Part shown: piece after piece, positions 7,466-24,568 of the stretch
Layout of the letters: each line of letters opens with the position of its first letter
Position numbering within the stretch: the stretch's first letter is position 1
NCBI GenBank assembly: GCA_025774805.1
Contig: JALGZR010000019.1
Location: forward strand, 3,387-67,386
Reading direction: 5' to 3'
DNA: 64,000 bases
DNA from: a bacterium
GTDB lineage: Bacteria; ARS69
Translations under genes and position numbers: made by a program
The notes under the pieces: model-generated
What the model saw: the letters and a program-made list of their open reading frames with translations, nothing else
Told to the model about the DNA's origin: nothing
Database searches by the model: none

Positions 7466-8290
7466 TCAAGACCTGACCAGCAGCGGAAGCTCGGTCTCCA
7501 AGTTGGCGGGACGAACGCGCACGAGCCACGTGTCGGCGCCGATGGAAGACGGGTGATCCAGCGCTCCCTGGTTGACTTCCAGCACTTGGCCGCTCAGGGG
7601 CACGAACACGTTGTGTGATTCGCCGGAGGCGGTCTTCAGTCTGAAGCCGACCAATCCCTGCTCGATGAGATCGCTCTCGCCGGGAGCGTCCAGTGAAGCG
7701 AGAGCGTCCACGGTGTCCAGAAACGATGCCTCGATGCCCATCCTGATCGTGCCGTCCTGCTGGTAGACGGCCCAAGAGTGCTCCCGCAGGTGAAAGCGAT
7801 CGCCGGGCTTGAGCTTCAGCACCGGGAACTCGGCGCTCTCCGTTGCGGCCAGTGCCTCCGCGGTGGACGGCCCGGGCGCCACGGCACGGCGCAGTGTGCG
7901 ATTGACTGGCCCCAACAGCTCCTGCCGCGTGAAGGGCTTGGACAGATAGTCCACCGCGCCGAGGCGCAGCGCGTGGAGCGCGGTGCGGATCGTCGGGTAG
8001 CCCGTGATCATCAGCACCGGCACCTCTTGGCCCTTGGCGCGCATCTTCTCCATCAGCTGGATGCCGTTGATGTCGGGCATCATCAGGTCCATGATCACCA
8101 GGTCGTACGTTCGTGATGCAAGCAGCTCCAGCGCTTCCGGGGCTCCGAACGCCGCGTCCACCTGATGCCCTTGTCGGCCCAGTATGCGTTGCAGGCTGTC
8201 GTGGATGATTTCCTCGTCGTCTATGACCAGGATGCGGGACCCGTCGCCGGTCTGGCGGTCCTGCCGCTGTTTGATCGGCGCCTTTCCCAT
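7466..8290 (-). CDS. Response regulator: REC domain fused to a glycine-cleavage-H-like (GcvH-like) domain
   Basis: REC: ILVIDDEE..DLVIMDLMMPDING..LMITGY..YLSKP. The C-terminal 120 aa align with GcvH (EHSW..DGTIRMGI..LKTASGES..VPLSGQVLEVN..P....W). Confidence 0.8.
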   Translation of the reverse strand: MGKAPIKQRQDRQTGDGSRILVIDDEEIIHDSLQRILGRQGHQVDAAFGAPEALELLASRTYDLVIMDLMMPDINGIQLMEKMRAKGQEVPVLMITGYPTIRTALHALRLGAVDYLSKPFTRQELLGPVNRTLRRAVAPGPSTAEALAATESAEFPVLKLKPGDRFHLREHSWAVYQQDGTIRMGIEASFLDTVDALASLDAPGESDLIEQGLVGFRLKTASGESHNVFVPLSGQVLEVNQGALDHPSSIGADTWLVRVRPANLETELPLLVRS

Positions 8291-8331: not shown

Positions 8332-10155
8332 CTACTCGGTCGAGACCGGTAGGACGATACGAAACTTGCTGCCGGTACCCTCTCGGCTCTGCACTTCCAC
8401 GCGACCTTCGTGCCGCTCTACGATCGTGCGCACCGCCGCCAGACCGAGGCCGTATCCCTCTTCTCCCTTACTCGAAACGAACGGTTCGAAGATGTCTCCG
8501 AGTCGGTCTTCCGGGATTCCGCAGCCCGTGTCGGACACGGTGATTTGCACCGTATCCTCGTCGTCGTCGGCGGCCGTCCGGATGGAGATCTCGCCGCGGG
8601 ATTTCATCGCGTCTCTGGCGTTGATCACGAGGTTCAGCAAAGCCTGGTGGATCTTGTGGGGATCGGCATGAATGTCCGGCAGGTCATCTTGGAGATCGAC
8701 GTCGAATTCGATGTTGTGAAACGAGGCCTGACGCTCCACCATGGTCAACATGTGCGAGATGACGTCGTTGATGTGGATCCACTGCCGGTCCAGCCTTTTT
8801 GGGCGCGAGAACTCCAGCAGATCCCCGACGATACGCCGACAGCGCAGTGTTTCGTTAACGATGACCTCGTAGTCCTTGCGAACGGGGTCGTCGGCGTCGG
8901 CCTCCAACAGCAGATCCTCGGCAAACGTGAGGACCCCGCTAAGAGGGTTGTTCAGCTGGTGGGCGACGCCGGCGGCGAGCCGGCCGACGGCCGCGAGCTG
9001 TTCGGTCCGCACGAGCTCGCGCTGAAGCTGCCGCCGCCGGGTTTGGTCCTGGCTGACGCAACAGATGCCCACGACGTCTCCCTTGTAGTCTCTGAGAGGA
9101 AGCCGCTCCGACGCCAAGATCCGCTCCTTCCCCCGGATCTTGAGCACCTCCTCGCTGACATGACGGCCGCCGGTGGCGAGCGTCTCTTGGTCTAGCTTTT
9201 GGATGAGGTCGGCCGTCTCCTTGTCGAACACGTCGGCGGCAGTCTTGCCGATCATTTCGTCGCGGCTCATGCCGACCACTTCCTCGGTCCAGGGATTGAC
9301 GACCAGGTAGCGGCCCTCAAGGTCCTTGATGGTGATGACGCCGTGCACCGCGTTGATGATTTGCTGGAAGCGCCGAGCGGACTCCTCGGTCTCTCGCTTC
9401 AGCGTGACCTGCTCGGTGATTTCGCGAGCGGTCTCGACGACCCGCGTGATCTTCCGATGCTCGTTGAACAGAGGGATCGCCGTGATCTGGAAGTGCCCTT
9501 CTTTGCCGGACGAGGCCAGCGCGCTCCGGATCACAGTGACCGGCTGTCCGAAGGTGGTGACCTCGTCGAGGAGTTCGGTGAGATTCGCCGACCAGTCCGC
9601 AGCGTCTTCCCGGGTGAAAACATCGCGGATCGACAGACCACGCACCTTGTCGCGCGTCTTCCCGGCAATGCGCACGAACCCCTCGTTGACACGAACGATG
9701 CGCATCTCCTGGTCGAGCACGACGACCACGTCCGGAATGGCGTCCAAGATGTCCTGGAGCAGGGCGCGATCGCGGTCGACCTTGGATTGCAGCTCGGTCT
9801 TCTCGTGGAGCTCCCCCAACAGGTTCTCTGCCACGTCCCCCAGATCCCAAAACACCCGGGCCACGAAGTGGTCCATAACCCTGACACCGGGCGGAACGTG
9901 CCGGTGAATCCGATCCAGCACCTCGTCCGAACCGGTCAGCTCGATGACCAGTTCGAGGCCGGGAAGAGCCAACGCATGCTTCACGGAGCCCAGCGTTTTC
10001 CAGCCACGATCTCGGGCGAAACGCATGCCAGGCGCGTCTGGATCGATGTCGACCACCGCGAGGATGTGAGGGTCGAGGAATCGCAGCTTCCCTTGCTCGA
10101 AAAGCTCGAGGAAAGCGCGGCAGCCTGGCCCGGCACCGATGACCGCGGTCTTCAT
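8332..10155 (-). CDS. Cytoplasmic sensor histidine kinase: Rossmann-like N-domain, two PAS domains, DHp, HATPase
   Basis: N-terminus MKTAVIGAGPGCRAF (GxGxxG-like). PAS-like segments. H-box AAGVAHQLNNPL. NLVINARDA, DTGCGI, GYGLGL. Confidence 0.85.
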   Translation of the reverse strand: MKTAVIGAGPGCRAFLELFEQGKLRFLDPHILAVVDIDPDAPGMRFARDRGWKTLGSVKHALALPGLELVIELTGSDEVLDRIHRHVPPGVRVMDHFVARVFWDLGDVAENLLGELHEKTELQSKVDRDRALLQDILDAIPDVVVVLDQEMRIVRVNEGFVRIAGKTRDKVRGLSIRDVFTREDAADWSANLTELLDEVTTFGQPVTVIRSALASSGKEGHFQITAIPLFNEHRKITRVVETAREITEQVTLKRETEESARRFQQIINAVHGVITIKDLEGRYLVVNPWTEEVVGMSRDEMIGKTAADVFDKETADLIQKLDQETLATGGRHVSEEVLKIRGKERILASERLPLRDYKGDVVGICCVSQDQTRRRQLQRELVRTEQLAAVGRLAAGVAHQLNNPLSGVLTFAEDLLLEADADDPVRKDYEVIVNETLRCRRIVGDLLEFSRPKRLDRQWIHINDVISHMLTMVERQASFHNIEFDVDLQDDLPDIHADPHKIHQALLNLVINARDAMKSRGEISIRTAADDDEDTVQITVSDTGCGIPEDRLGDIFEPFVSSKGEEGYGLGLAAVRTIVERHEGRVEVQSREGTGSKFRIVLPVSTE

Positions 10156-10538: not shown

Positions 10539-10883
10539 GTGACTGATCTCCGAGTCCTCACCCAGCGGATCGTCGCTTTCCGCGAGGCCCGCGACTGGGC
10601 TCAGTTCCATACCCCCCGCAACCTCGCCGCTTCCCTGTCCATCGAAGCCGCCGAACTCCTGGAGGTTTTCCAGTGGGACCTGGATGACGGCAGGACGCTC
10701 GATCCCGACCGGCGCGAGCGCATCGCCGAGGAGCTGGCCGACATTGGCATCTACGCCCTCCTACTCGCTCACGAGGCCGGTTTCGATCTGGTCCGTGCCA
10801 TGACAGACAAGATCGAAGAGAACGAACGGAAGTACCCGGTCGATAAGGCCAGGGGCCGCTCCACCAAATACACTGAGTTCTAG
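10539..10883 (+). CDS. MazG-like nucleotide pyrophosphohydrolase
   Basis: FREARDWAQFHTPRNLAASLSIEAAELLEVFQW..EELADIGIYALLLA..KIEENERKYP. GTG 10539 has RBS GGAGG; ATG 10515 is an alternative start. Confidence 0.8.
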   Translation: MTDLRVLTQRIVAFREARDWAQFHTPRNLAASLSIEAAELLEVFQWDLDDGRTLDPDRRERIAEELADIGIYALLLAHEAGFDLVRAMTDKIEENERKYPVDKARGRSTKYTEF

Positions 10884-11078
10884 CCTTGATCTTCCGGAAA
10901 ATCTCGGCGGAAACCGCTGACGCTCGCACGATAGCACGTCATCCGCGACCGTGCTCGCCCTCGCCAATCCTCACTTATCGTGAGATAAGCTCCGGTTGGC
11001 TCGGGCGGTTTGCTTTGCGGCCCCGGCTGACGCACTCTCGCGCGTTTCCACGCAAGGTTTTCTGGAAGATCAAGGCTA
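10881..11078. mobile_element. Family-3 palindromic miniature element (single copy in the window)
   Basis: 23-bp terminal inverted repeats TAGCCTTGATCTTCCGGAAAATC ... GGTTTTCTGGAAGATCAAGGCTA (2 mismatches). Its first TAG is the stop codon of the MazG-like gene. Confidence 0.55.
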
Positions 11079-11377
11079 GGACGCGGTGCAGCTCCGGGCT
11101 GGACCCGCCCGCCACTTCATCCAGGACGCGATCCATAATGCCATCACCGGCAAGTTGGCAGATGAGTCAGATTCTGCAGACCGCGGCTCCCCGCGAGATC
11201 GGTCATCGAGTCCGGGGTCCGGCGACTCCGCGAGGCGGTCACGACCCCGCGACTCGCGTCCGGGGCTGGGCGGGGAATCCGGATCCGGTACTATACTCCA
11301 AGGCGTCGACCAGGCGCGAGCTGTGGCCGCCCGGGTACGCGGCCATCGCCGGCAAGCTGCTCCACGGCGAGTTTGAC

Positions 11378-12413: not shown

Positions 12414-14024
12414 GTGCCTCTCCCGCACCTGAAGAGCCCCGAGGACGTCGAGCGCTTTCTCGACGAGAACGAGGGGCTGGACGTCAAGAATCTGGTCCCT
12501 TTGCCCCACCCTTACGAGGACTGGGAGGATGAGCCGATCCCTGCGCTGACCGAGGAGCAGCGCGGTCGCTACGAGGTGGGGCCGGACGGGATCAGTGCCA
12601 CGCGGACGCCCGTCCCGGAGACCGAGGAGGAACGGGAGGAGAAGGTCGCCGGGTTCCTCGAAGGGCTGGGCAAGCTCCTGACGAAGGAGAACAACTGGAC
12701 GTTTCTCCAGCCGTTGCTGCTCTCCCTCGACAACTGCGTCAAGTGTCAAACCTGCTCCGAATCTTGCCCCATCTACACGGCGTCGGGAAGGCCGGAGCAA
12801 TACCGGCCGACGTTCCGGGCGGAGGTGCTCCGGAAGATCATCAGTCGCTACCTCAAGCCAGGTGGGAACCTCTTCCCGAAGCTACGGGGCAACGATGTCG
12901 AGCTGAACTGGGAAGCGGTCATCCAACTTGCCGAGCTGTCCTACCGTTGCACCCTCTGCCGGCGCTGTGCCCAGGCTTGTCCCGTGGGCGTGGACAATGC
13001 CCTGATCACTCGGGAGATCCGAAAGCTCTTCAGCCAGGAGCTGGGCATCCACATGCCGGAGCTACACGACGTCGGGACGGTGAAGCAGCTCGCCACGGGC
13101 TCGTCCACCGGTCTCAACCCCGCCGGGGTCCGGGACATCGCCGAGTTCACCGAGGAGGACATCCGCGAGAAGACGGGGCTGGACATCAGAATCCCGTTCG
13201 ACGTCGAGGGGGCCGACTATTTGGTGATGCACAACGCGGGGGAGTTCCTCTCCTGGCCGGAGAATCTCCAGGCGTTCACCATCATCCTCACGGTCGCTGG
13301 CGTGAACTGGACCATGGCCTCCGACAAGATTGGTTACGACTCAGTCAATTACGGTCTGTTCTACGACGACGTCCAGCTCTCCAGAATTGCCCTCAGGCAC
13401 TACGAGGTGGCGAAGAAGCTGAAGGCCAAGAGGTTTCTGATGGGGGAGTGCGGGCACGCTCACAAGGCGACCATGCCCATCGCCGGCCGCGTCCTCCCGA
13501 AGGAGCTCCAGGTGCCGGGCGAGAGCGCTCTGGTCCTGCTGGAGGATCTAGTGATGAACGACCGGATCAGACTCGATCCGTCACGCAACGACTTTCCGGT
13601 GACGCTCCACGATCCCTGCAACATCACGCGCTCCATGGGCATCGTCCAGCCGCAGCGCAACATCCTGAAGAAGATCTGTCCCCAGTTTCGCGAGATGGAG
13701 CCGCACGGTGTCAATAACCTCTGCTGTGGCGGCGGCTCGGGCTTCGCGGTAGGCCAAGGCCTGAACTTCCCCGCGTGGCGAACGCGCGTTTCGGGCCGGC
13801 TCAAGTTCTGTCAGATTCTCGAGGCCTTCTCCGCCAGCATTGAACCGGAGACGAAGAAGTACGTCTGCGCTCCCTGTTCCAATTGCAAGGGACAGTTGCG
13901 GGACATCCTCACCTACTACCAGGGATGGGATCGGTGCGGCATCTTGTATGGGGGGTTGGTCGAGCTCATTGTCAATGCAATGGTCGATGTTCCGGAGGGT
14001 TTCCTGGAGTGGGAGTTCCATTGA
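12414..14024 (+). CDS. HdrD/DsrK-like iron-sulfur (CCG-domain) subunit
   Basis: CVKCQTCSESCP, CTLCRRCAQACP, HDPCN and NLCCGGGSGF motifs. GTG 12414 lies 3 nt after the upstream stop. Confidence 0.8.
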   Translation: MPLPHLKSPEDVERFLDENEGLDVKNLVPLPHPYEDWEDEPIPALTEEQRGRYEVGPDGISATRTPVPETEEEREEKVAGFLEGLGKLLTKENNWTFLQPLLLSLDNCVKCQTCSESCPIYTASGRPEQYRPTFRAEVLRKIISRYLKPGGNLFPKLRGNDVELNWEAVIQLAELSYRCTLCRRCAQACPVGVDNALITREIRKLFSQELGIHMPELHDVGTVKQLATGSSTGLNPAGVRDIAEFTEEDIREKTGLDIRIPFDVEGADYLVMHNAGEFLSWPENLQAFTIILTVAGVNWTMASDKIGYDSVNYGLFYDDVQLSRIALRHYEVAKKLKAKRFLMGECGHAHKATMPIAGRVLPKELQVPGESALVLLEDLVMNDRIRLDPSRNDFPVTLHDPCNITRSMGIVQPQRNILKKICPQFREMEPHGVNNLCCGGGSGFAVGQGLNFPAWRTRVSGRLKFCQILEAFSASIEPETKKYVCAPCSNCKGQLRDILTYYQGWDRCGILYGGLVELIVNAMVDVPEGFLEWEFH

Positions 14025-14092
14025 CGGACGGAGCCTCTCGCATGGCCTGCGGCTGATCGAGCCGCGCACGGCCGAAGACACAGCGGAAGAGG

Positions 14093-14110
14093 CGTTACGA
14101 GAAGGAAATG
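14093..14110 (+). promoter_or_regulatory. Candidate enhancer (UAS) half-palindrome CGTTAC-N6-GAAATG
   Basis: Shares GTTACG(A)GAAGG(G)AAA with the site at 16208-16225. Lies 108 nt upstream of the -24 element at 14201. Confidence 0.35.
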
Positions 14111-14200
14111 CCCGGCCTCCGGCGCGCTCCTGCCGTTTCCGACGAACCACGAATCGAGAGGGTCTGTGGCACATTTCGCCGGGTGAACGGCTTCCCTCTC

Positions 14201-14216
14201 TGGCACGAGCGCTGCA
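14201..14216 (+). promoter_or_regulatory. Sigma54-type promoter (-24/-12): TGGCAC-GAGCG-CTGCA
   Basis: Matches TGGCAC-N5-TTGCW at 10 of 11 specified positions. Correct orientation, about 80 nt upstream of ATG 14297. Confidence 0.65.
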
Positions 14217-14296
14217 ATTCCTGTAATCGGTTCAGTCTGTCGTCGTGCTGGATGTTGTCACGCCATGAAGCCTGCTGAGATGGCAAGGAGGAGGCA

Positions 14297-15973
14297 ATGG
14301 CCGGCCCCGAGAAGAAGCGCAGCCCGCTGATCGCGCTGGAGGACTGGTGGACCGTCTGGTTCGGTCTCGTCATCATCCTCGTCGCGACCGCACTGTCGCT
14401 CGCGACCTACTCCGGGAGCCTCACGCAGCTGAAGGTGCCCAAGCTGGGCGGTTGGGTTTCCAGCCCGATCGACGCCTTCTACGGAGCGAAGGAGACCAAG
14501 CTGACTCTGAAGGAGGACGTGACTCCGGCCACTCTCGCCGAGGCGATCAACGCCAAGAAGCCGAAGGCGACGGCCGAGGTCGTCCCCGCCGAGGGGGGCG
14601 TCCGGCTGAGGATCTCCTCCGATCGGGACAGGGCGGGCCAGGTGATCAAGGTCTCTCCCAACCTGATGGGAGGGGAGGAGCTCACGTTCACGAAAGAGGA
14701 CCCGGATCCGGACGGCATGGGGGCGAAGGCCTACGTCTCCCAGGTGTTCCCCTCCGACTCCGTCAATCTGGGCAGCGGCCTCTTCACCGTCAGCGCTCAG
14801 CGGACCGGCGTGCTGATCTTGCCCTGGATCGTGGCTTTCGCCCTGGTCGGGATCCTCACGGCCATCGGCGTGTCGGTGATGGGGCAGAGCCCCGGGAAGT
14901 ACTTCCTGGCCTTCGTCGTCATCCTGTTGCTGGCGGTGATCTCCTACACCGTCGCGAATCAGGTGCAGATCAAGGGTTGGGGGCTGAGCTACGCCATGTG
15001 GGCTCTGCTGATCGGTCTCCTGATCTCGAACACGATCGGCACCCCCGAGTGGCTCAAAGCCGGTGTTCGCACCGAGATGTACATCAAGACCGGGCTCGTG
15101 CTGCTGGGCGCCGAGATCCTGTTCGGCAAGATCCTGAGCCTCGGACCCCCGGGGTTGATGGTCGCTTGGATCGTCACGCCGACCGTGATCCTCTTCATGT
15201 GGCTCTTTGGCACCCGCATTCTCAAAATGAAGAGCAAGTGCCTCGTGATCATCATCGCCGCGGCGACCTCGGTCTGCGGCGTCTCGGCCGCCATCGCCGC
15301 GGCGGGGGCCTCACGGGCCAAGAAGGAGGAGCTGACGCTCGGCGTCGGGATGACGCTGTTCTTCACCGTGCTGATGATGATCTTCATGCCGATCGGCATC
15401 AAAGCGGCCGGCATGTCCGACGTGCTGGGGGCGGCCTGGATGGGCGGCACCATCGACGCCACCGGAGCGGTCGTGGCCGCCGGGTCCATGCTCGGTCCGC
15501 GGGCCGAGACGGTCGCCGCAGTGGTGAAGATGATCCAGAACGTGCTCATCGGCATCGTGGGGTTCTTCATCGCGGTCTACTGGGTCATCGTGGTCGACCG
15601 GGTTCCCTCGGGGCCCCGGCCCAACGCGATGGAGATCTGGCACCGGTTCCCGAAGTTCATCATCGGGTTCATCGGCGCCTCGCTCGTCTTCTCCTTCGTT
15701 CTCTCGCCGCTCTTCGGATCGCTGTTTTCGGGAGACGGCCTGAAGCTGGTGGAGAAGGGGGTGATCAAAGCCGTCACGAATCCCCTGCGGGGCTGGTTCT
15801 TCTGCCTCGCCTTCGTCAGCATCGGGCTCGAGTCGAACTTCCGGGAGCTGGCGAAACAGATGGAGGGCGGCAAGCCGATGGTCCTCTACGTCGTCGGGCA
15901 GAGCTTCAACCTGGTTCTGACCCTGTTCATGGCGTGGCTCGCCTTCCTCGTCCTGTTTCCGCACGCGATCTGA
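14297..15973 (+). CDS. YeiH/UPF0324-family membrane transporter (annotated elsewhere as putative sulfate exporter family) with an extra N-terminal soluble insert
   Basis: RBS AAGGAGGAGG. Family-typical ..TGLVLLGAEI..IIIAAATSVCGVSAAIAAAGA... About 120 non-hydrophobic residues lie between TM1 and TM2. Confidence 0.8.
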   Translation: MAGPEKKRSPLIALEDWWTVWFGLVIILVATALSLATYSGSLTQLKVPKLGGWVSSPIDAFYGAKETKLTLKEDVTPATLAEAINAKKPKATAEVVPAEGGVRLRISSDRDRAGQVIKVSPNLMGGEELTFTKEDPDPDGMGAKAYVSQVFPSDSVNLGSGLFTVSAQRTGVLILPWIVAFALVGILTAIGVSVMGQSPGKYFLAFVVILLLAVISYTVANQVQIKGWGLSYAMWALLIGLLISNTIGTPEWLKAGVRTEMYIKTGLVLLGAEILFGKILSLGPPGLMVAWIVTPTVILFMWLFGTRILKMKSKCLVIIIAAATSVCGVSAAIAAAGASRAKKEELTLGVGMTLFFTVLMMIFMPIGIKAAGMSDVLGAAWMGGTIDATGAVVAAGSMLGPRAETVAAVVKMIQNVLIGIVGFFIAVYWVIVVDRVPSGPRPNAMEIWHRFPKFIIGFIGASLVFSFVLSPLFGSLFSGDGLKLVEKGVIKAVTNPLRGWFFCLAFVSIGLESNFRELAKQMEGGKPMVLYVVGQSFNLVLTLFMAWLAFLVLFPHAI

Positions 15974-15986
15974 GGTGGGAACGCGG

Positions 15987-16181
15987 ATGAGGTGGCTCCG
16001 CTTCTGCGGCGGGCTCTTTCTCCTGGGAGGCCTCGTCACCTTGCTGGCGGCGGGTCCCCTCCCCGGGCCGGTGCTCCGCAACAACGCCGATCAGGACATC
16101 GAGGCCACGGCCCTGTTCTACATGGACCTGGACGAGATGCCGGAGCTGGAGTGGCGCCTGGGGGCGATGCGGCAGGAATAG
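15987..16181 (+). CDS. Possible small membrane-anchored protein (64 aa)
   Basis: MRWLRFCGGLFLLGGLVTLLAAG..., an anchor followed by an acidic tail. No recognisable family. Confidence 0.3.
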   Translation: MRWLRFCGGLFLLGGLVTLLAAGPLPGPVLRNNADQDIEATALFYMDLDEMPELEWRLGAMRQE

Positions 16182-16207
16182 GAACGTCGGGAGCGGCCGG
16201 ATCGCGA

Positions 16208-16225
16208 TGTTACGGAAGGGAAACA
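16208..16225 (+). promoter_or_regulatory. Candidate enhancer (UAS) TGTTAC-N6-GAAACA
   Basis: Imperfect inverted repeat, 111 nt upstream of the -24 element at 16319. Related to the sites at 24450 and 14093. Confidence 0.45.
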
Positions 16226-16318
16226 CCGTCCCCACGCGGGCTTTCCCGGACAGCGGCGTCCCCGGGATAAACTGCTGTCAATAGAGAGGTTAGCCTCGAG
16301 TTCCGACAACTCCGGCCG

Positions 16319-16334
16319 TGGCATGAGTGTTGCT
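16319..16334 (+). promoter_or_regulatory. Sigma54-type promoter (-24/-12): TGGCAT-GAGTG-TTGCT
   Basis: GG and GC have the canonical 10-nt separation. 10 of 11 consensus positions match. About 125 nt upstream of the dsrA ATG. Confidence 0.7.
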
Positions 16335-16459
16335 TTGCAACAGTTTACGGATGTCTCGTCCGTGGGTCGGTCCGGGGGCGGAAACCATCCCTCCGCTCCG
16401 GCACGGGGTCGACCGCTCGGCGGTCGGAACGCTGGTCTGGGTGTCGAGAAGGAGTCGTA

Positions 16460-17656
16460 ATGAGCGAACAGAAGAAGGGGACGCCGCTCCTGGACGAGCT
16501 GGAAAAGGGTGCATGGCCCAGCTTCGTCAAGGAGATCAAGAAGGAAGCGAAGAGGCCGATGGTGCGGGATCTCCTGGGCGTCCTGGAGCGCTCCTACGAG
16601 GAGAAGATCGGCCACTGGAAGCACGGCGGACTGGTCGGCGTGATGGGATACGGAGGCGGCGTCATCGGCCGCTACTGCAATCTCGGGGAGGAGTTTCCCG
16701 AGGTCGCCGAATTCCACACGTTGCGTGTCAACCAGCCCGCCGCGTGGTTCTACACCTCCGACGCACTGCGCAAGCTGTGCGACGTCTGGGACGAGCACGG
16801 GTCGGGCCTGACCAACATGCACGGCTCGACGGGCGACATCATCTTCCTCGGCGCCAAGACGGAGGAACTGGAGCCGACGTTCTCCGGGCTGACGGAAGCC
16901 GGGTTCGACCTGGGTGGCTCCGGGTCGGACATGCGCACGCCGAGCTGCTGCGTCGGGCCGGCCCGCTGTGAATGGGCATGCTACGACACCCTCAACGCGT
17001 GCTACGACCTCACCCAGCAGTTCCAGGACGAGCTGCACCGACCGATGTTCCCCTACAAGTACAAGTTCAAGTTCGCCGGCTGTCCGAACGACTGCGTGGC
17101 TTCGGTGGCCCGGGCGGACATGTCCATCATCGGGACCTGGAAGGACGAGATCCAGATCGACCAGAAGGAAGTCCAGGCCTACGCCAAGAACGGCACGGAC
17201 ATCCAGAAGGAGATCTGTGACCTGTGTCCGACGAGGTGCATGGACTGGGACGGCCAGAAGCTCGAGATCGACGACGCCGAGTGCGTCAAGTGCATGCACT
17301 GCATCAACGTGATGTCCAAGGCGTTGAAGCCGGGCCAGGAACGTGGTGCCGCCATCCTCATCGGCGCGAAGGCACCGATCATCGGTGGGGCCCTGCTGTC
17401 GTCGGTGCTCGTCCCGTTCATCGAGATGAAGCCGCCGTACGAGGACCTGAAGGAGCTCACCGAGGCCATCTGGGACTTCTGGGGTGAGCATGGCAAGAAC
17501 CGCGAGCGCGTTGGGGAATTCATCCAGCGTGTGGGACTCGGGGCGTTTCTCGACGAGATCGGTCTGGAACCCGTGCCCGAGATGATCGCGCACCCGCGCA
17601 GCAATCCCTACATCTTCTTCGAGGAAGATCTCGAGGAAGAGGATGAGGACGAGTAG
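16460..17656 (+). CDS. dsrA: Dissimilatory sulfite reductase alpha subunit
   Basis: [53 protein letters not shown], plus ferredoxin insert CPTRC..CVKCMHC. Confidence 0.95.
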
Positions 17657-17694
17657 CTCCGGGCATGCGAGTAGCTCCGGGCAAGGAGGCTTCC

Positions 17695-18771
17695 ATGACG
17701 ACAACCGAACGTAAGACCGATATCGGACCCCCTCACTACGAGCAATTCCTCCCGCCCGTCATCAAGGCGAACTACGGGAGGTGGGCCCACCACGAGATCG
17801 TCGAGCCGGGCGTGATGGTGCACGTAGGGGAATCGGGGGACAAGCTGTACACGGTTCGCGCGGCGACGCCACGCCTGCTCGCCATCGCCACGATTCGTCT
17901 CTTCGCGGATTTGGCGGACAAATACTGCGACGGTCACCTGCGCTTCACCAGCCGCAACAACGTGGAGTTCTTGCTCACGGACAAGTCGAAGATCCCGGCC
18001 CTGAAAAAGGATCTGGAGGGAGAGGGCTACCTGGTCGGGGGCATCGGCAACGCCATCTCCAATATCGTCCACACCCAGGGTTGGGTTCACTGCCACTCCG
18101 CCGCGTCCGACGCGTCCGGCGTGGTGAAGTGCATCATGGACGAGCTGCACCCGCACTTTACCGGCATGGAGCTTCCGGGCAAGCTGCGCATCGCGTTCGC
18201 GTGCTGCCTGAACATGTGCGGAGCGGTCCACTGCTCCGATATCGCCGTGCTGGGCGTGCACACGAAGGTCCCGGTCATCGACCACGAGGAGCTGCCACGG
18301 GTCTGCGAGGTGCCGACCCTGGTCGCATCGTGCCCCACCGGTGCCATCCGGCCGGCCACGGTCGACGGACACAAGTCGGTGGAGATCGAGGATCCGCAGT
18401 GCATGTTCTGCGGCAACTGCTACACGGTGTGCCCCTCGGTGAAGATCAACAACGCGGACCATGACGGGATCTCGATCTGGGTCGGCGGGAAAGTCTCCAA
18501 CGCCCGCCGGGAGCCGATGTTTTCCAAACTGGCGATTCCCTATCTCCCCAACAACCCGCCGCGGTGGCCCGAGGTCGTCGAGGCGGTGAAGGGCCTCGTC
18601 GACGTGTGGGCGAAACACGCCCGCAAGCACGAGCGCATGGGCGAATGGATTGATCGGATCGGCTGGAAGCGGTTCTTCAAAATCGCCGGCATCCCGTTCA
18701 CCAAGTACCACATCGACGACTTCACGCATGCCGGTGAGACCTACAAGCGCTCGGTCCAGCTGAAGCACTAG
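17695..18771 (+). CDS. dsrB: Dissimilatory sulfite reductase beta subunit
   Basis: [70 protein letters not shown]. Confidence 0.95.
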
Positions 18772-18780
18772 GAGGCATGC

Positions 18781-19032
18781 ATGAGCCAGCCGACCGTTGA
18801 TGACGTCGCCACCGCGATGTTCGACCTGATCAAGGCGACGCACGGCAAGAAGAACCTGAAGCCGATGGACGTCACGAAGGCCATGATCGACCAGTTCGGC
18901 GAGGACGCCTGCGACAAGAAGCTCTGCAAGAAGGCCATTCGCCAGCTCATCGATTCCGGCCGCTGCATCTACAGCTATGTCGGCGGGAGTTACATCACGT
19001 TGCCGGCCGAGGAGGAATCCTCGGAGGGCTGA
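18781..19032 (+). CDS. dsrD: DsrD (small winged-helix-like protein of reductive dsr operons)
   Basis: 83 aa directly after dsrB. ..THGKKNLKPMDVTKAM..KKLCKKAIRQLIDSGRCIYSYVGGSYITLP. Confidence 0.85.
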   Translation: MSQPTVDDVATAMFDLIKATHGKKNLKPMDVTKAMIDQFGEDACDKKLCKKAIRQLIDSGRCIYSYVGGSYITLPAEEESSEG

Positions 19033-19103
19033 GGCGGCAGTCGGGGGGGGCCGGCCCGCGCCGGCCTCGATGCTTGGGATCGCGACCGACAAGGGATGAG
19101 GTC

Positions 19104-19541
19104 ATGGCGCACGTCCATGTGCCGGAGCGCATCGAGAAACTGGTGAGCACGCTCCGCCAATGGCAGAAGATCGAGCGGGAGGTGGTCGAATCGTGCGCGT
19201 CGATCATGGAGAAGACCAAAAACGCCCGGATCAGGCAGTTCATGGAGACCATCCGCAATGACTCCGCCCAGCATCATCGGCTGCAGCAGTTCCTCGTCGA
19301 CAGCCTGACAAAGGAACAGATCAAGCTGACGCCGGAGGAGCTGGGCGAGGTCTGGGACGAGATCACGGCGCACGACGAAGTCGAGCGGAAGACCATCGAG
19401 CTGGCGGAAGAGTGCAAGGAGGAGTGCAGGTTCTTCGTACAGCGTGCGCTCCTTGACTACCTGATCACGGACGAGGAGAAGCACGATCAGCTCCTCCAGT
19501 CTCTCGAGGAATTCAAGAAGAACATCTACCCGTACGGTTAG
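19104..19541 (+). CDS. Hypothetical all-helical protein (145 aa) inside the dsr operon
   Basis: Charged heptad-like sequence with one ExxH (DEEKH) and a CKEEC motif. No family recognised. Lies between dsrD and dsrL. Confidence 0.6.
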   Translation: MAHVHVPERIEKLVSTLRQWQKIEREVVESCASIMEKTKNARIRQFMETIRNDSAQHHRLQQFLVDSLTKEQIKLTPEELGEVWDEITAHDEVERKTIELAEECKEECRFFVQRALLDYLITDEEKHDQLLQSLEEFKKNIYPYG

Positions 19542-19575
19542 ACATCGCCGCGAGGAAACAGGGGAAGGGGCGCCG

Positions 19576-21306
19576 ATGAGCCTGCTGAACAAGAAGAAGA
19601 AGAAAGGCGGGGCCCGTCGCGCCCTGCGCGGTGGTGGGTCCTCCGGAACGCAGATCTCGTCGCTGCGGCCCCAGGCCGTGGAAAAGCTGCCGCCCTGCAC
19701 CGGGCACTGCCCCAGCGACAACGACATCCGCGGCTGGCTCACCGTGATCGCTCACCACGGGAAGTACGGTCTCTCTCTGGAAGAGGCCCGTGATCGGGCG
19801 TGGCGAATCGAGGTGGAGACGAATCCGTTCCCGGCGGTGATGGGGCGGGTCTGCCCGCACCCGTGCGAGACGAGCTGCAACCGTGTGCACAAGGACGGGG
19901 CCGTCGCGATCAACTCCGTGGAACGGTTCATCGGCGACTGGGGTATCGAGAGAGGGCTGAAGCTATCCGCCCTCGACGGCGATGCGGCCGGCGAGAAGAT
20001 CGCCGTCATCGGGGCGGGCCCCTCGGGTCTTTCCTGCGCCTATCAGCTGGCCCGCCGCGGCTACAAGGTCACCGTCTTCGATGCCTTCGAGAAACCGGGC
20101 GGCATGCTCCGCTACGGCATCCCGTCCTACCGCCTCCCTCGCGAGGTGCTGGACGCCGAGATCCAACGCATCCTCGACATGGGCGTCGAGTTGCGCAGCA
20201 ACACCTCTGTGGGAGAGCCCATCACCCTGGACGAGATCCGCAAGGAGTACGACGCCGTTTTCGTCGGCATCGGCGCGCACCAGGGCAAGACCATGGGGAT
20301 TCCGGGTGAGGACGGCTCGGGGGTCTACACCGGCACGGAGTTCCTCAACCTTGTCAACTCGGGCCGGGGAGCCGAGATCGGCGATCGGGTCATCGTGGTC
20401 GGCGGCGGCGACACCGCGATCGACGCGGCGCGCGTCTCCCTGCGTCTGAGCCCCGACGCGGCGGCCGTCTCGCGCCGCCTGGGCGCCGAGGTGACGATTC
20501 TCTACCGCCGCACGCGGGCCGAGATGCCGGCCATCGAGCGCGAGATCGAGGAGGCCCTCGAAGAGGGCATCAAGATCGAGTTCCTCGCGTCGCCGGCGAA
20601 GGTGATCCGGAGTGCCGACGGCACCGTGGAGAAGCTGGCCGTGCAGCGCTTCGAGCTGGGCGAGCCCGACGACTCGGGCCGGCGCCGGCCGGTTCCCATC
20701 GAGGGGGATGTCTTCGAGCTGGAGGCGGACACCCTGATCATGGCGGTGAGCCAGGCCCCCGACTGGAGCACCCTGGGCGGCGGCATCGAAACCAAGGGCA
20801 ACTGGCTGGAAGTGGACGAGTGGGGCCGCACGGGAATGGAGGGGGTCTGGTCGGGGGGTGACACCCTGACCCTCGGGCTGGCCACCATCTCCATCGGTCA
20901 GGGCCGCAGGGCGGCCGAGTGCATCCACGCGAAGCTCCGCGGGCACGAGCCGAAGTCCCCTCCCGATCGCCCGGCGATCGGCAAGGATCGTCTCAAGCTC
21001 GACTGGTACAAGGAGGCCCCGCGAGCGGAGCGGAAGATCCTCGCCCCGGAGGAGCGGCTGGCGCGTCCCATGGATGAAATGGACCTCGGTGTCACCGAAA
21101 CACAGGCGCAGGCGGAGACGGAGCGCTGCTTCAGTTGCGGTCTCTGCTTCGGCTGCGAGAACTGCTGGATGTACTGCCAGGTGAACTGCTTCAAGAAAAC
21201 CAAGGAACTCGAACTGGGGCACTTCTACGACATCGACCTGGGCACGTGTGACGGCTGCAAGAAGTGCGCTGAGGAGTGTCCCTGCGGTTTCCTCGATCTG
21301 TACTGA
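19576..21306 (+). CDS. dsrL: DsrL-type NAD(P)H oxidoreductase (GltD/NfnB-like with a C-terminal ferredoxin domain)
   Basis: N-terminal Cys clusters (CTGHCPSDN, RVCPHPCETSCNR). GAGPSGLSCAYQLARRGYKVTVFD. A second dinucleotide fold. C-terminal CFSCGLCFGCENC and CDGCKKCAEECPC. Confidence 0.8.
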   Translation: MSLLNKKKKKGGARRALRGGGSSGTQISSLRPQAVEKLPPCTGHCPSDNDIRGWLTVIAHHGKYGLSLEEARDRAWRIEVETNPFPAVMGRVCPHPCETSCNRVHKDGAVAINSVERFIGDWGIERGLKLSALDGDAAGEKIAVIGAGPSGLSCAYQLARRGYKVTVFDAFEKPGGMLRYGIPSYRLPREVLDAEIQRILDMGVELRSNTSVGEPITLDEIRKEYDAVFVGIGAHQGKTMGIPGEDGSGVYTGTEFLNLVNSGRGAEIGDRVIVVGGGDTAIDAARVSLRLSPDAAAVSRRLGAEVTILYRRTRAEMPAIEREIEEALEEGIKIEFLASPAKVIRSADGTVEKLAVQRFELGEPDDSGRRRPVPIEGDVFELEADTLIMAVSQAPDWSTLGGGIETKGNWLEVDEWGRTGMEGVWSGGDTLTLGLATISIGQGRRAAECIHAKLRGHEPKSPPDRPAIGKDRLKLDWYKEAPRAERKILAPEERLARPMDEMDLGVTETQAQAETERCFSCGLCFGCENCWMYCQVNCFKKTKELELGHFYDIDLGTCDGCKKCAEECPCGFLDLY

Positions 21307-21311
21307 GTCGC

Positions 21312-22802
21312 ATGGAGCTTCTCACCCCACGCCTGGTGGTTGGCGGTCTGGCGGGCGACAGCGGAAAGACGCTCGTGGCGCTCGGCCTGTCCCGCGCGTT
21401 CGTCAGCCGGGGCCTTAGTGTCGGCCCCTACAAGAAGGGGCCGGACTACATCGACGCGGCGTGGCTCGGGGCGGCGGCAGGAGCGGCGGGGCGGAATCTC
21501 GACACTTTCCTCATGGAGCGCTCCGCCATCGGGTCCGGCCTGTCGCGGTCCGGATCGGCCGACCTGCTGATGCTGGAAGGCAATCGCGGGCTGTTCGACG
21601 GCCTCGACTCCGAGGGGAGCCACTCCACCGCCGAGCTGGCCAAGCTCATCGGCGCCCCCGTGCTTCTGGTGCTCGACGTGACGAAGATGACCCGCACGGC
21701 GGCGGCCCTGGTGGTCGGCTGCAAAGCTCTGGATCCGCAAGTTCCCTTGGCGGGGGTGGTGCTGAACCGGGTGGGCACGGCACGCCAAGAAGGCGTTCTC
21801 CGAGAGGCCATCGCGGCGGCAGGCGGGCCGCCGGTCCTGGGCGCGATTCCCCGCCTGGAAGAAGAGTGGCTGCCCGGGCGCCATCTTGGCCTGGTCACGG
21901 CGGTCGAGCACCCACGACGTGAGGAAGCTTTGCAGGCAGTGGCGTCGGCGGTGGATCGCCACGTGGATCTCGAAGCCGTCCTCGACGTGGCGCGGTCCGC
22001 GACTCCGGTCCGTTTCCCCGATCCCGACCCGATTCCGGCGGGAGCGACCGTGAGAATCGGCGTCCTGCGGGACGAGGCGCTGAGCTTTTACTACCCGGAG
22101 AATCTGGAGGCGCTGCAAGCCTGCGGCGCCGAGCTGGTGACGGTGTCTCCGCTTCGCGATGATCATCTGCCGGACCTGGACGGTCTCTACTTCGGCGGCG
22201 GGTTTCCGGAGACTCATGTGAAGCGACTGGCTGCCAATGACTCGCTGCGTGAATCGGTGCGGGAAGCGGCAACGGCCGGAATGCCGATCTACGCCGAGTG
22301 TGGCGGACTGATGTATCTTGCCCGCGAACTCGTGGTGGACGGGGTCTCCCACTCCATGGCGGGCGTGCTCGATCTGGTCGTCGAGCAGACAGCCCGGCCT
22401 GTGGGGCACGGATACGTGGAGGCGGAGGTCGATGGGTCGAATCCGTTCTTCGAGTGCTCGACGCGCCTGCGCGGACACGAGTTCCATTACTCCCGAATCC
22501 TGTCCGGACATGACGCCAGCGCCTCGTGCCTCCGCCTGCAACGCGGTCATGGGATCGGGGGCGGACGCGACGGCCTCGCCGTGGGGAACGTTTGGGCCTC
22601 TTACCTGCACGTGCATGCCTTGGGGACGCCCTCATGGGCCGGGACGTTCACGGCCCTCGCACGCGCCTGGCGAACGAAGAGGGATCGGGGTAAGGGGCGC
22701 CGTCGCCCGACCTCGTTGAACGGGCGAGGACACGGGAAGCCCGAGGAACATGAAGACACGACTGGGCCAGAAGATCATGAGTTTGCTCCGGCAAGGGCGT
22801 GA
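21312..22802 (+). CDS. dsrN: DsrN (cobyrinic acid a,c-diamide synthase-like siroheme amidase)
   Basis: P-loop-like GLAGDSGKT, GPDYID, and a C-terminal glutamine amidotransferase part (YAECGGLMYL). The low-complexity tail overlaps the next gene by 53 nt. Confidence 0.8.
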   Translation: MELLTPRLVVGGLAGDSGKTLVALGLSRAFVSRGLSVGPYKKGPDYIDAAWLGAAAGAAGRNLDTFLMERSAIGSGLSRSGSADLLMLEGNRGLFDGLDSEGSHSTAELAKLIGAPVLLVLDVTKMTRTAAALVVGCKALDPQVPLAGVVLNRVGTARQEGVLREAIAAAGGPPVLGAIPRLEEEWLPGRHLGLVTAVEHPRREEALQAVASAVDRHVDLEAVLDVARSATPVRFPDPDPIPAGATVRIGVLRDEALSFYYPENLEALQACGAELVTVSPLRDDHLPDLDGLYFGGGFPETHVKRLAANDSLRESVREAATAGMPIYAECGGLMYLARELVVDGVSHSMAGVLDLVVEQTARPVGHGYVEAEVDGSNPFFECSTRLRGHEFHYSRILSGHDASASCLRLQRGHGIGGGRDGLAVGNVWASYLHVHALGTPSWAGTFTALARAWRTKRDRGKGRRRPTSLNGRGHGKPEEHEDTTGPEDHEFAPARA

Positions 22803-23274
22803 AGAGACGGTGGCCGGATTGGCCATCTCTGACCGGCGGGCCCTGCGTCCTCTCATGGGGAGGCTGTGGGATCCCGATCCGCGGATCCGGCGTCACGCGG
22901 CCGGCGCCATGGGTCGATCCGCGGAGGCACATCCGACGCTCGGGCTGGAAATGGTGCGCCGTCTGATGTGGGCCCTCAATGATGAGGCCGCGACCAACGG
23001 GGTGTTCGGCATCGCGGCCCTCGGGGAGATTGGCCATCGATGTCCGGAGATTCTGGAGCCGTTCATTTCCCCGTTGGTCTCCATGGCCTGGGACGAGGGG
23101 ATCCGGCTGGAGCTACTGAAGGCCCTCGGCCGCGTTGCGGAAGCGGATCCGCGACTGGTGAGGCGCGACCTCGCGCGTCTGGAGGCCTTCGTGGACGAGT
23201 CGCAAGAGGAAGAACGCGACGCGTTCCAGCGTCTGGTCGCGCTGGCCGGGGAGAGCAACCGTGAACGCAACTGA
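22750..23274 (+). CDS. HEAT/armadillo-like repeat protein
   Basis: Repeats of the type DPDPRIRRHAAGAMGR and ..GIAALGEIG..LLKALGRVA. Function unknown. Confidence 0.6.
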   Translation: MKTRLGQKIMSLLRQGREETVAGLAISDRRALRPLMGRLWDPDPRIRRHAAGAMGRSAEAHPTLGLEMVRRLMWALNDEAATNGVFGIAALGEIGHRCPEILEPFISPLVSMAWDEGIRLELLKALGRVAEADPRLVRRDLARLEAFVDESQEEERDAFQRLVALAGESNRERN

Positions 23275-23821
23275 AGGAGCGACCCACGGGATGGAACGCT
23301 ACCTGGAGCGGGTCCGGGAGAATCCGGAGTCCGCCGCCGCTCACTATAACCTCGGTCTGGCCTACACCCAGCGCGGACGGCCCGACCGCGCCGAGAAGCA
23401 CTACCGCAAGGCTCTCGAGCTCGAGCCCGACCTGGTGGAGGCCTGGGTCAACCTCGGTGGCGTGCTGTTGTTCAAGTGGGACTTCCCGGGCTGCGTCGCG
23501 GCCAACGAGGAGGCCCTGAAGCGCCAGGACGACTTGCTTCTGGCTCACTACAACATCGGCCAGGCCTGTCTCTACCTGGCCGACACGGAAGGAGTGCTGC
23601 GCAGCTTCCGCCGCGTCGTGGACCTGGACCCGGGGCACGCGGCGGGGCACTACTTTCTCGCCGTCGGGCTGCTGGCCGCCGGCCGCGTGCCCGAGGCCGT
23701 GGAGGAGATGGCTCGCGCCAAGGCCCTGGGCCACTCACCAGCCCCCGAGTTCCTGCGGGCCCTGAAGACCGCCGCCAAGGAACTGATTCGATCCACCGAC
23801 CCTAGCCCGGACTATTCATGA
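23261..23821 (+). CDS. Tetratricopeptide (TPR) repeat protein
   Basis: AHYNLGLAYTQRGRPDRAEKHYRKALELEPD and further TPR units. The start is GTG 23261 or ATG 23291. The last 19 nt lie inside the family-1 element. Confidence 0.75.
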   Translation: MNATEGATHGMERYLERVRENPESAAAHYNLGLAYTQRGRPDRAEKHYRKALELEPDLVEAWVNLGGVLLFKWDFPGCVAANEEALKRQDDLLLAHYNIGQACLYLADTEGVLRSFRRVVDLDPGHAAGHYFLAVGLLAAGRVPEAVEEMARAKALGHSPAPEFLRALKTAAKELIRSTDPSPDYS

Positions 23822-23983
23822 AGGATCTGCTGCGATCGCGGATACGCGCCACCGGACGGGCGTCCTCGGGGTTCGTACCCTGCGACGTATCGTTGAGATA
23901 CGCCTCGGGTCCAAACCCCTGCGGGTGCCCGTCCGGTGGGCGTCTCCGCAATCTCGCGACGATCTTCATGAATAGTCCGGGCT
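23803..23983. mobile_element. Family-1 palindromic miniature element, copy 2
   Basis: TAGCCCGGACTATTCATGAA ... TTCATGAATAGTCCGGGCT. The interior is collinear with copy 1 and has an extra internal inverted repeat (CCACCGGACGGGC / GCCCGTCCGGTGG). Confidence 0.6.
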
Positions 23984-24038
23984 GGCAATTCGACCGATCT
24001 CGGGGCGGAAGCTCCGGATAACAAAGAGGAGAGATGAG

Positions 24039-24356
24039 ATGCCGGAGTTCACACACGGAACGATCACGCTCACCGTCGACGAAGATGGATTCATGCAGGA
24101 GCCCGACAAGTGGAACGAAGAGGTTGCGGCTGCTCTTGCGACCACCGAGGCGGTCGAGGATCTCACCGATGACCACTGGAAGGTGGTCAACTACCTGCGC
24201 CAGTACTATCTCCAGTTCGGCGTCGCTCCGATGATCCGGAAGCTGACCAAGGAGACCGGGCTCAACCTGAAGAAGATCTACGAGCTGTTCCCGTCCGGGC
24301 CGGCCAAGGGCGCGTGCAAGGTGGCGGGGCTGCCCAAGCCGACCGGTTGTGTCTGA
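24039..24356 (+). CDS. dsrC: DsrC
   Basis: 105 aa. RBS AAGAGGAGAG. C-terminus ..GPAKGACKVAGLPKPTGCV carries both conserved cysteines. Confidence 0.95.
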   Translation: MPEFTHGTITLTVDEDGFMQEPDKWNEEVAAALATTEAVEDLTDDHWKVVNYLRQYYLQFGVAPMIRKLTKETGLNLKKIYELFPSGPAKGACKVAGLPKPTGCV

Positions 24357-24449
24357 GAAGCATCGCCCGCGAGCGACTTCGGGGGGGCGAACAGCCTGCC
24401 TGGCGGAATCGGAGCCGGGCAGGGGGCTCGCCCCCTCGCCGTATCCGGC

Positions 24450-24467
24450 TGTTACCGGGTCGTAACA
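24450..24467 (+). promoter_or_regulatory. Candidate enhancer (UAS): perfect palindrome TGTTAC-N6-GTAACA
   Basis: Perfect 6+6 inverted repeat, 119 nt upstream of the -24 element at 24569. Confidence 0.55.
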
Positions 24468-24568
24468 CTCGGAGGCTCCCGCGCCTCGAGCGTCCGGCAC
24501 TCGCCCACATCCGTCCGTGCAAGCCGTTGAATTTCAATAAATTGGATGTGCGCCACCGAGCCTGTGAT

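Follow-up and report, generated by a model that had tools for sequence, protein, structure and literature searches.

A predicted sigma-54 promoter with an AioR-type activator site upstream of dsrABD in an acidobacterial dsr gene cluster

Introduction

In Rhizobium sp. NT-26, Agrobacterium tumefaciens, and Herminiimonas arsenicoxydans, arsenite is sensed by the three-component system AioX-AioS-AioR (AioXSR), which controls aioBA, the operon for arsenite oxidase. The promoters of aioBA and of the arx genes depend on RpoN (sigma-54) (PMC5335332; PMC5908839). The binding site of AioR has the form GT[TC][AC][CG]...[GTA]AAC, and its DNase I footprint is GTTCGGATTTCCGAAC (PMC5335332). AioX and its orthologs (AioX, ArxX, and ArrX) are stated to be the only members of their family of binding proteins that act in signaling (PMC5908839). 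Here, we describe a similar arrangement around the genes for dissimilatory sulfite reductase (dsrABD) in 64,000 nucleotides of a bacterial contig (JALGZR010000019.1, positions 3,387 to 67,386; GenBank assembly GCA_025774805.1). We refer to this whole stretch as the window. Upstream of dsrA, there is a predicted -24/-12 promoter, at 16319-16334, and a palindrome that resembles the AioR site. An earlier reading of this DNA, from the sequence alone (the sequence-only reading), had proposed that dsrABD is transcribed from a sigma-54 promoter with an enhancer-like repeat. The motifs, the 111 nt to the repeat, the roughly 125 nt to the ATG of dsrA, and the 278-nt intergenic gap were all as that reading described them.

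The window and AioXSR have much in common. In both, a PF12974 protein, a kinase, and an activator with receiver, AAA+, and Fis-type helix-turn-helix (HTH) domains are encoded together, and the three-component layout at 33652-37425 of the window is the same as at two aioBA loci (L297 and L309). The RpoN promoters of both are of the -24/-12 type and are preceded, at about 110 nt, by a 16-bp palindrome (GTT-N10-AAC), and the recognition helices of the activators are identical (LGISRKTLWEKM). The window's sites GTTACGGAAGGGAAAC and GTTACCGGGTCGTAAC fit the AioR form GT[TC][AC][CG]-N6-[GTA]AAC and lie upstream of an RpoN promoter. The window differs from AioXSR in its activator, which shares just about 36% identity with AioR, and in its binding protein, which resembles PtxB more than AioX and does not have the arsenite-binding cysteine. 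Its targets are dsr genes instead of aioBA, with three proposed promoters in one cluster, the host is from the Acidobacteriota, and many relatives of the window's system lack the binding-protein gene.

Promoters that are controlled by activators such as NtrC, DctD, or NifA are also similar: they have a GG at -24 and a GC at -12 at a fixed spacing, a palindrome that lies 100-150 nt upstream with an A/T-rich block in between, and a GAFTGA-bearing activator. The window differs from these in the sequence of the binding site and in the pathway, and the involvement of IHF is only suggested, by a TCAA-N4-TTG site at the dsrT promoter. In Desulfovibrio alaskensis, dsrABD and dsrMKJOP are predicted targets of Rex and are not among the listed targets of RpoN (PMC4045070). 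The target genes are the same as in the window, but Rex is a redox-sensing repressor, whereas we propose positive activation via sigma-54. The sequence-only reading was not aware of any account of sigma-54 dependence for dsrAB, and we did not find a published description of sigma-54 control of dsrAB (or of dissimilatory sulfite reductase) either, including in the main paper on marine dsr-carrying Acidobacteriota.

Results

The promoter before dsrA and its two sisters

The -24/-12 element of dsrA, TGGCAT-GAGTG-TTGCT (TGGCATGAGTGTTGCT), matches 10 of the 11 positions of the consensus TGGCAC-N5-TTGCW. The GG is at 16320-21 and the GC is at 16332-33, with ten bases between them. The element ends 126 nt before the ATG of dsrA, in the 278-nt gap that follows the stop codon (at 16181) of a small open reading frame (ORF). 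The palindrome lies exactly 111 nt upstream of the -24 element (Table 1).

Both motifs are rare. TGGCAY-N5-TTGCW matches the 64 kb just twice, versus 0.01 matches expected, and none of 100 shuffles reached two matches. Similarly, TGTTAC-N6-GWAACA, with up to one mismatch, has only two sites in the window, versus 0.05 expected from the shuffles. The strict promoter and the palindrome are paired, in the same order, at both locations (dsrA and dsrT), with 111 or 119 nt between them, and both pairs point into dsr operons. A relaxed scan identified another promoter, before the gene for a YeiH-like transporter (PF03601), with a weaker activator site. The distances from palindrome to -24 element are 111, 119, and 108 nt at the dsrA, dsrT, and PF03601 promoters, respectively.

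We also looked for other kinds of control. A simple consensus scan did not find a promoter of the sigma-70 type at 15900-16600 or elsewhere in 13900-25000, in line with the sequence-only reading, which had not noticed a convincing -35/-10 pair. The Rex operator TTGTGA-N6-TCACAA does not occur near dsrA, and the window has 3 matches with 3 mismatches, which is below the 7.8 expected. As for DNA bending, the strict IHF consensus is not matched at the dsrA promoter, and TCAA-N4-TTG is found only at the dsrT promoter. (Five other loci have TCAA-N4-TTG at the same relative position: L011, L163, L165, L167, and L183.) The A/T-richer block that lies between the two motifs of dsrA is a candidate for a DNA-bending or IHF-type site.

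Table 1. Locations of the predicted regulatory sites and of the genes discussed in the text
Feature	Positions	Strand	Comments
Weaker activator site of the PF03601 promoter, CGTTACGAGAAGGAAATG	14093-14110		CGTTAC-GAGAAG-GAAATG; 108 nt before the -24 element
PF03601 promoter (sigma-54 type), TGGCACGAGCGCTGCA	14201-14216	+	10/11 consensus (relaxed scan); 96 nt before the PF03601 gene
PF03601 gene (YeiH-like transporter)	14297-15973		
dsrA upstream activator site (predicted), TGTTACGGAAGGGAAACA	16208-16225		TGTTAC-GGAAGG-GAAACA; imperfect 18-bp palindrome of AioR type; GTT-N10-AAC core
A/T-richer block between activator site and dsrA promoter, ATAAACTGCTGTCAATAGAGAGGTTAG	16267-16293	+	Partly kept in an alignment of five close relatives
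-24/-12 element of dsrA (predicted)	16319-16334	+	
dsrA 5' leader (predicted)	16345-16459	+	Probable start at about 16345, from the usual distance to the -12 GC
dsrA	16460-17656	+	Pfam
dsrB	17665-18771	+	Pfam
dsrD-like gene	18781-19032	+	Pfam
dsrT-dsrMKJOP activator site (predicted)	24450-24467		Perfect palindrome TGTTAC-CGGGTC-GTAACA; 119 nt before the -24 element; between dsrC and dsrT
IHF-like site	24532-24544	+	TTTCAA-TAAA-TTG; about 37 nt upstream of the dsrT -24 element; putative function
Sigma-54 promoter of dsrT, TGGCACGCCGGTTGCA	24569-24584	+	11/11 consensus; 40 nt before the dsrT start (24621/24624)
Periplasmic binding protein of the PhnD/PtxB/AioX family, 'X' component	33652-34566	+	PF12974 (Pfam)
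Sensor histidine kinase, 'S' component	34568-36046	+	sCache_3_2, HAMP, HisKA, HATPase_c (Pfam)
Sigma-54 enhancer-binding response regulator, proposed activator	36043-37425	+	Receiver, AAA+ with GAFTGA at residue 221, Fis-type HTH

The promoter and the palindrome are conserved in relatives

The sequence-only reading had suggested checking if the -24/-12 element is conserved upstream of dsrA in related genomes. We found that the element and the palindrome do recur, with fixed spacing, before dsrA or before an operon of the PF03601 gene and dsrA.

We compared 80 loci that were fetched through DsrA to 80 control loci that encode unrelated enhancer-binding proteins (EBPs). Among the DsrA loci, the strong -24/-12 matches were in the acidobacterial ones. 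Some of these promoters directly precede dsrA, at a distance of 133-410 nt, and the others precede the PF03601 gene, about 1.65-1.75 kb upstream of dsrA. In seven loci (L001, L002, L004, L005, L007, L009, and L012), a strong sigma-54 match near dsrA is found only before the PF03601 gene; in six of these, the PF03601 ORF ends at most 20 nt from the annotated ATG of dsrA (39 nt in L004). Eight loci (L001, L002, L005, L006, L009, L012, L013, and L059) have an equivalent of the dsrT promoter, 7.5-8.5 kb downstream of the start of dsrA. In relatives, the same type of promoter is also found before genes for a rhodanese and a VTT-domain protein, before dsrMK-like genes, and before a set of genes for HdrD, NrfC, NrfD, and cytochrome c.

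Nearly all of these acidobacterial promoters have YGTTAC-N6-GWAACR upstream. We combined the window, the acidobacterial loci among the 80, and six additional loci from Thermoanaerobaculia or Sulfomarinibacteraceae, and we found 37 promoters with the plan YGTTAC-N6-GWAACR, about 111 nt, TGGCAC-N5-TTGCW. Most of the spacings are 110-112 nt, and the spacer of about 85 nt is not conserved. If we allow at most one mismatch in the ten core positions, then the DsrA loci have 22 palindromes that precede one of their 52 sigma-54 motifs by 107-112 nt, versus 0 for the 48 sigma-54 motifs in the EBP loci.

A protein search identified closer relatives, whose DsrA is 89-90% identical and which have the same layout (PF03601 gene, small ORF, dsrA). 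In the alignment of these sequences, TGTTAC..AAC and TGGCA.G.GTGTTGCT are invariant, and they stand out as footprints, together with a partly conserved central A/T-richer block, against a mean identity of 60%. Four close relatives have TGGCACGAGTGTTGCT or TGGCACGCGTGTTGCT aligned with the window's dsrA element, which gives a perfect TGGCACG.GTGTTGCT, and in three of the four, the palindrome is 111-113 nt away. The PF03601 site in close relatives is TGTTACGGGGAGGGAACG, at 108-109 nt, and the promoter there is TGGCACGAGCGTTGCA. The PF03601 gene is present in three of the close relatives, and each of these has a promoter before the transporter gene as well as one before dsrA.

A genome-wide scan links the composite to sulfur genes and to aioBA

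We then scanned one genome per species, from 185,579 species, for the pattern GTTAC-N6-GTAAC-N85-105-TGGCAC-N5-TTGC, without regard to which genes were nearby. At least 119 loci matched, versus about 20 chance matches expected (by our own arithmetic, with equal base frequencies). Among the matches listed, 61 were directly before genes of dsr clusters in Acidobacteriota. Another 15 of the listed matches were before aioBA, next to aioXSR. At these aioBA loci, divergent genes encode a PF12974 binding protein, a kinase, and an activator with receiver, AAA+, and HTH domains (according to Pfam), which is the AioXSR arsenite-sensing system. The listed matches also include two operons from Sulfomarinibacter with a transporter of the sodium/sulfate-symporter family. 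Given the target genes of the composite across the relatives, the regulon seems to be one for sulfur respiration.

At two other listed loci, from Desulfobulbia (L241, 1313-3541, and L351, 343-2509), the composite precedes nrfHA (cytochrome c nitrite reductase). A Desulfurivibrionaceae locus (L357) encodes an EBP with a related helix, LGISRKNLWQKMK.

The putative activator, its kinase, and a binding protein

The window encodes just one EBP, at 36043-37425. It matches Sigma54_activat (1.2e-69) and has the receiver's aspartate. Its recognition helix, LGISRKTLWEKMK, is identical to those of the AioR proteins beside three aioBA promoters (L297, L284, and L255). Over the full length, it is about 35-37% identical to AioR; the proteins do not appear to be orthologs, and it is the recognition helix alone that they share. 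Most other EBPs (from 160 control loci) have different helices. (For this comparison, the HTH query was longer than 58 residues, as a 58-residue query was too insensitive.) The exceptions among the controls, L082-L084, are 46-47% identical with the same helix, and they also have GTTAC-N6-GTAAC sites; L083 and L084 have one such site with a sigma-54 motif 91 nt downstream. So, this helix accompanies a site with the GTTAC palindrome in three independent lineages: AioR, the EBP of the dsr clusters, and L082-L084.

Searches with protein words and hidden Markov models found many orthologs of the window's EBP, at 71-89% identity, and SRKTLWEK is kept in most of the best 120 homologs. (A pattern-based search of loci had found only proteins at 40-47% identity and had suggested an EBP without orthologs, but this was an artifact of exact 8-mer seeding.) We examined the gene context of orthologs in six relatives. 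In all six, the kinase gene is immediately upstream of the EBP gene, and the pair is directly after the siroheme synthase gene. In five of the six, this stretch directly follows dsrMKJOP and a pyridine-nucleotide oxidoreductase. Two of these contexts, L360 and L362, are contiguous with the dsrA loci L002 and L009.

Near the kinase-EBP pair in three relatives (L360, 15416-16858; L362, 13853-15224; L365, 13334-14690), there is a conserved gene for a protein of about 390 residues with no match in Pfam. This gene has its own GTTAC-type palindrome and sigma-54 motif, and it is probably another member of the regulon.

Among proteins with solved structures, the best relatives of the window's binding protein are PtxB (7.7e-30), ArrX (2e-19), and AioX (1e-9). 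The protein keeps the oxyanion motif STSSH, as in phosphite-binding PtxB (AioX has SNSGW), as well as the His and Asp positions of the pocket. (The pocket residues of AioX are from PMC5908839.) At the position of the arsenite-binding Cys106 of AioX, the window's protein has Asp and those of L360 and L362 have Gly, although this numbering, via the AioX of Azoarcus, is approximate. With Asp instead of the arsenite-binding cysteine, the window's protein should not be an arsenite sensor of the AioX kind. Based on the regulon, its ligand might be a small oxyanion such as sulfite, thiosulfate, or sulfate, but we make this proposal tentatively and with less than even confidence. Because signaling members of the family were limited to AioX and its orthologs (PMC5908839), the linkage to dsr genes is a new context.

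A second family of EBPs beside dsrA

In Thermoanaerobaculia and Sulfomarinibacteraceae, we noticed another EBP, with PAS, AAA+, and HTH domains, that is encoded directly upstream of dsrA (L006, 8281-9714; L013; L014; L011; and at least 14 loci from the scan). The PAS domain of this EBP is rich in cysteines (CC-x7-C-x3-C), and GAFTGA is replaced by GAFTDA. The family is widespread: Planctomycetota, Desulfobacterota, and other phyla have orthologs (about 60% identical) whose genes adjoin sigma-54 promoters with TGCA-N3-TGCA sites. Downstream of one of these EBPs (L192), the ORFs resemble DUF89-type and NifU-type proteins, as judged by eye.

The dsr gene cluster and other features

The window is 65.7% G+C and holds a large dsr supercluster (as identified with Pfam). 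The best relatives of its DsrA are from uncultured Acidobacteriota. The order of the genes is: dsrMK-like genes, the PF03601 transporter, the small ORF, dsrA, dsrB, the dsrD-like gene, an unassigned ORF, dsrL, dsrN, HEAT and TPR genes, and dsrC (to 24356), with the genes from the unassigned ORF to dsrC on the same strand as dsrABD; and then dsrT, dsrMKJOP (to 30116), a pyridine-nucleotide disulfide oxidoreductase, siroheme synthase, and the sensor-kinase-EBP operon. The gene order of the dsrABD region is kept in relatives. Directly after dsrC and before the dsrT activator site, there is a G+C-rich inverted repeat without a T tail (24365-24437; GGGGGGCGA...TCGCCCCC), which is consistent with a boundary between transcription units.

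The small ORF (15992-16181) between the transporter gene and the dsrA activator site encodes a hydrophobic protein. In three close relatives (L366, L367, and L369), a 70-residue gene was called at the same position.

In the leader of dsrA, CCCTCC (16389-16394) is complementary to the ribosome-binding GGAG (16451-16454). In a consensus fold of five relatives, CUCC pairs with GGAG, and CCCTCC is conserved. All of the pairs are invariant, so there is no support from covariation; invariant pairs neither support nor refute a pairing that would allow translational control. We also considered a structured leader or riboswitch, but the 115-nt leader has no match in Rfam and its folding energy is ordinary (z = -0.45).

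Between a MazG-like gene and the dsrM-like gene, a stretch of about 200 bp (10881-11081) is bounded by 22-nt inverted repeats (CTAGCCTTGATCTTCCGGAAAA / TTTTCTGGAAGATCAAGGCTAG, with one mismatch) and may be a miniature inverted-repeat element. In relatives, the dsrMK-like genes have a sigma-54 promoter at this position, but the window has no such promoter. The supercluster is flanked by two similar gene pairs (4976-7458 and 37634-39642), each with a stand-alone receiver of 149 residues and a HAMP histidine kinase, and similar receiver genes are near dsr clusters in L005, L006, L007, L013, and L014. Finally, a gene on the reverse strand (7466-8290) encodes a response-regulator receiver fused to a lipoyl-carrier-like domain (glycine-cleavage H-protein), which is an unusual output domain. 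It adjoins a gene for a histidine kinase with two PAS domains (8332-10155).

Discussion

A model for the activation of dsr genes

The best explanation for these results as a whole is that dsrABD has a sigma-54 promoter with a remote activator site, and that this is one of three promoters in the cluster with the same plan. We estimate the probability of this reading at roughly 80%. That dsrA itself has a functional sigma-54 promoter with this activator site seems very likely from the comparative evidence. The rarity of the motifs, their conservation, the AioR-type site, and an activator with GAFTGA in the same window all support the promoter and enhancer-like repeat of the sequence-only reading. 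It is less secure, but still a good bet, that the activator is the response regulator encoded in the window.

In the mechanism that we propose, the sigma-54 holoenzyme would bind TGGCAY-N5-TTGCW and would remain closed. The NtrC-type regulator (36043-37425), as a dimer or hexamer, would bind YGTTAC-N6-GWAACR about 111 nt upstream. The DNA between the palindrome and the promoter would form a loop, which might be aided by an IHF-like bend, and ATP hydrolysis by the AAA+ domain that bears GAFTGA would then open the promoter. The adjacent kinase (34568-36046) would phosphorylate the regulator, and in this organism, the binding protein that resembles PtxB and AioX (33652-34566) probably informs the kinase. 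The proposed activator would act at three promoters: those of the PF03601 transporter gene, dsrABD, and dsrT-dsrMKJOP. If so, dsrA would be under the strict control of an EBP. This kind of mechanism is known (a two- or three-component EBP at a sigma-54 promoter), while the target and the variant of the sensor are new. The window's system probably works as AioXSR does, but it does not belong with AioXSR by its ligand residue, by orthology, or by its target.

Alternative explanations

Several observations weigh against this reading. The dsrA element departs from the consensus and from all four close relatives in having a T (TGGCAT) in place of C, and the dsrA palindrome has a degenerate right half-site (GAAACA). 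Besides the window, L360 and L362 have the binding-protein gene, but it is missing from the other four of the six relatives' loci that we examined, so it is not essential to the system in general. (A peptide for the RpoN box is not encoded in the 64-kb window or in the fetched loci, but a peptide search of those stretches is uninformative.) Also, transcription from the 14201 promoter, 2.1 kb upstream, may read through into dsrA. If dsrABD were expressed mainly in this way, then the element at 16319 would be weak, secondary, or decaying. The off-consensus CAT would fit with this, as would the seven loci whose only strong sigma-54 match near dsrA is the transporter promoter, with the transporter ORF ending so close to dsrA in most of them. 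In the window, the only terminator-like site in the gap is weak and lies inside the small ORF (15997-16013). But four close relatives keep a perfect dsrA element, three of them with the palindrome, which argues for selection on an independent promoter, and many other lineages have the promoter directly before dsrA. We consider read-through as the main route to be rather unlikely, and it would leave dsrAB dependent on sigma-54 anyway. A more radical alternative is that the motifs are chance matches in G+C-rich DNA and that dsrA has an unrecognized promoter of the sigma-70 type. Acidobacterial sigma-70 promoters are poorly defined, and a simple consensus scan could miss one. Nevertheless, the shuffles predict just 0.01 and 0.05 matches, the spacing is fixed at 37 promoters, the blocks are invariant, and a genome-wide scan led back to dsr loci. 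This makes chance extremely unlikely.

The promoters could also be genuine and respond to a different activator, such as an ortholog of the cysteine-rich PAS-domain EBP that is encoded elsewhere in the genome. In Thermoanaerobaculia, the gene for this EBP is directly upstream of the same palindrome, so position by itself does not single out one activator. The distance from the end of this gene to the palindrome is 100-350 nt in at least 14 dsr loci. We checked eight such loci, and in seven of them, the gene has neither another sigma-54 promoter nor a TGCA-type site next to it. But of 73 loci of this family from other phyla, 57 have a TGCA-N3-TGCA site, and the recognition helix of these proteins is essentially the same (STL[YF]RKI[KR]), so the PAS-domain EBP is unlikely to bind the palindrome. 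In one case (L166), the PAS-domain EBP keeps a TGCA-N3-TGCA site before an ORF of 133 amino acids, upstream of the GTTAC promoter. Furthermore, we found no PAS-domain EBP in the window, and its clade has none within 10 kb of dsrA. Thermoanaerobaculia also have a kinase-EBP pair, with an AioR-type helix, after the dsr cluster. Overall, another activator seems improbable. As for the signal, the system could be a true arsenite sensor of the AioX type, with dsr genes that respond to arsenic instead of to a sulfur compound. The layout and the DNA site are the same as for AioXSR, and AioX, ArxX, and ArrX are the only family members that were said to act in signaling (PMC5908839). But the arsenite cysteine is replaced (by Asp, or by Gly in L360 and L362), and the pocket has STSSH, not SNSGW. 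The match to PtxB is better than the match to AioX by 20 orders of magnitude. Pfam scans of the window did not find aio, arx, or arr genes (including the Rieske and molybdopterin subunits of arsenite oxidase), and the regulon comprises sulfur genes. We view an arsenic response as very unlikely, and we favor a sigma-54 promoter that is activated by the window's own regulator.

Implications

To our knowledge, how dsr genes are switched on is poorly understood outside of a few Desulfovibrio and purple sulfur bacteria. As far as we know, for the abundant uncultured Acidobacteriota that carry dsr genes, neither the substrate nor the direction of the pathway has been settled. The AioXSR-like system at the end of the cluster is the likely switch, and it offers a way to test which signal induces sulfur respiration in these bacteria. 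With a dedicated sensor, the physiological inducer could be addressed without cultivation, via ligand binding to one soluble protein. The DNA signature should also make the set of regulated genes predictable in any metagenome-assembled genome. So far, the predicted set includes dsrABD, dsrT-MKJOP, the PF03601 transporter, dsrMK-like genes, a rhodanese, a HdrD-NrfCD-cytochrome complex, and a transporter of the sodium/sulfate-symporter family.

More broadly, it appears that the DNA-binding module of the arsenite regulator was recruited to another respiratory pathway in a different phylum. It is conceivable, though on balance we doubt it, that this is the first three-component sensor of a sulfur oxyanion (sulfite, thiosulfate, or sulfate) and the master switch of the whole dsr regulon in oxygen-respiring Acidobacteriota with a facultative sulfur metabolism. 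If that is true, then AioXSR and the window's system would be sister branches of one oxyanion-sensing module, in which the DNA site was kept while the ligand and the target changed.

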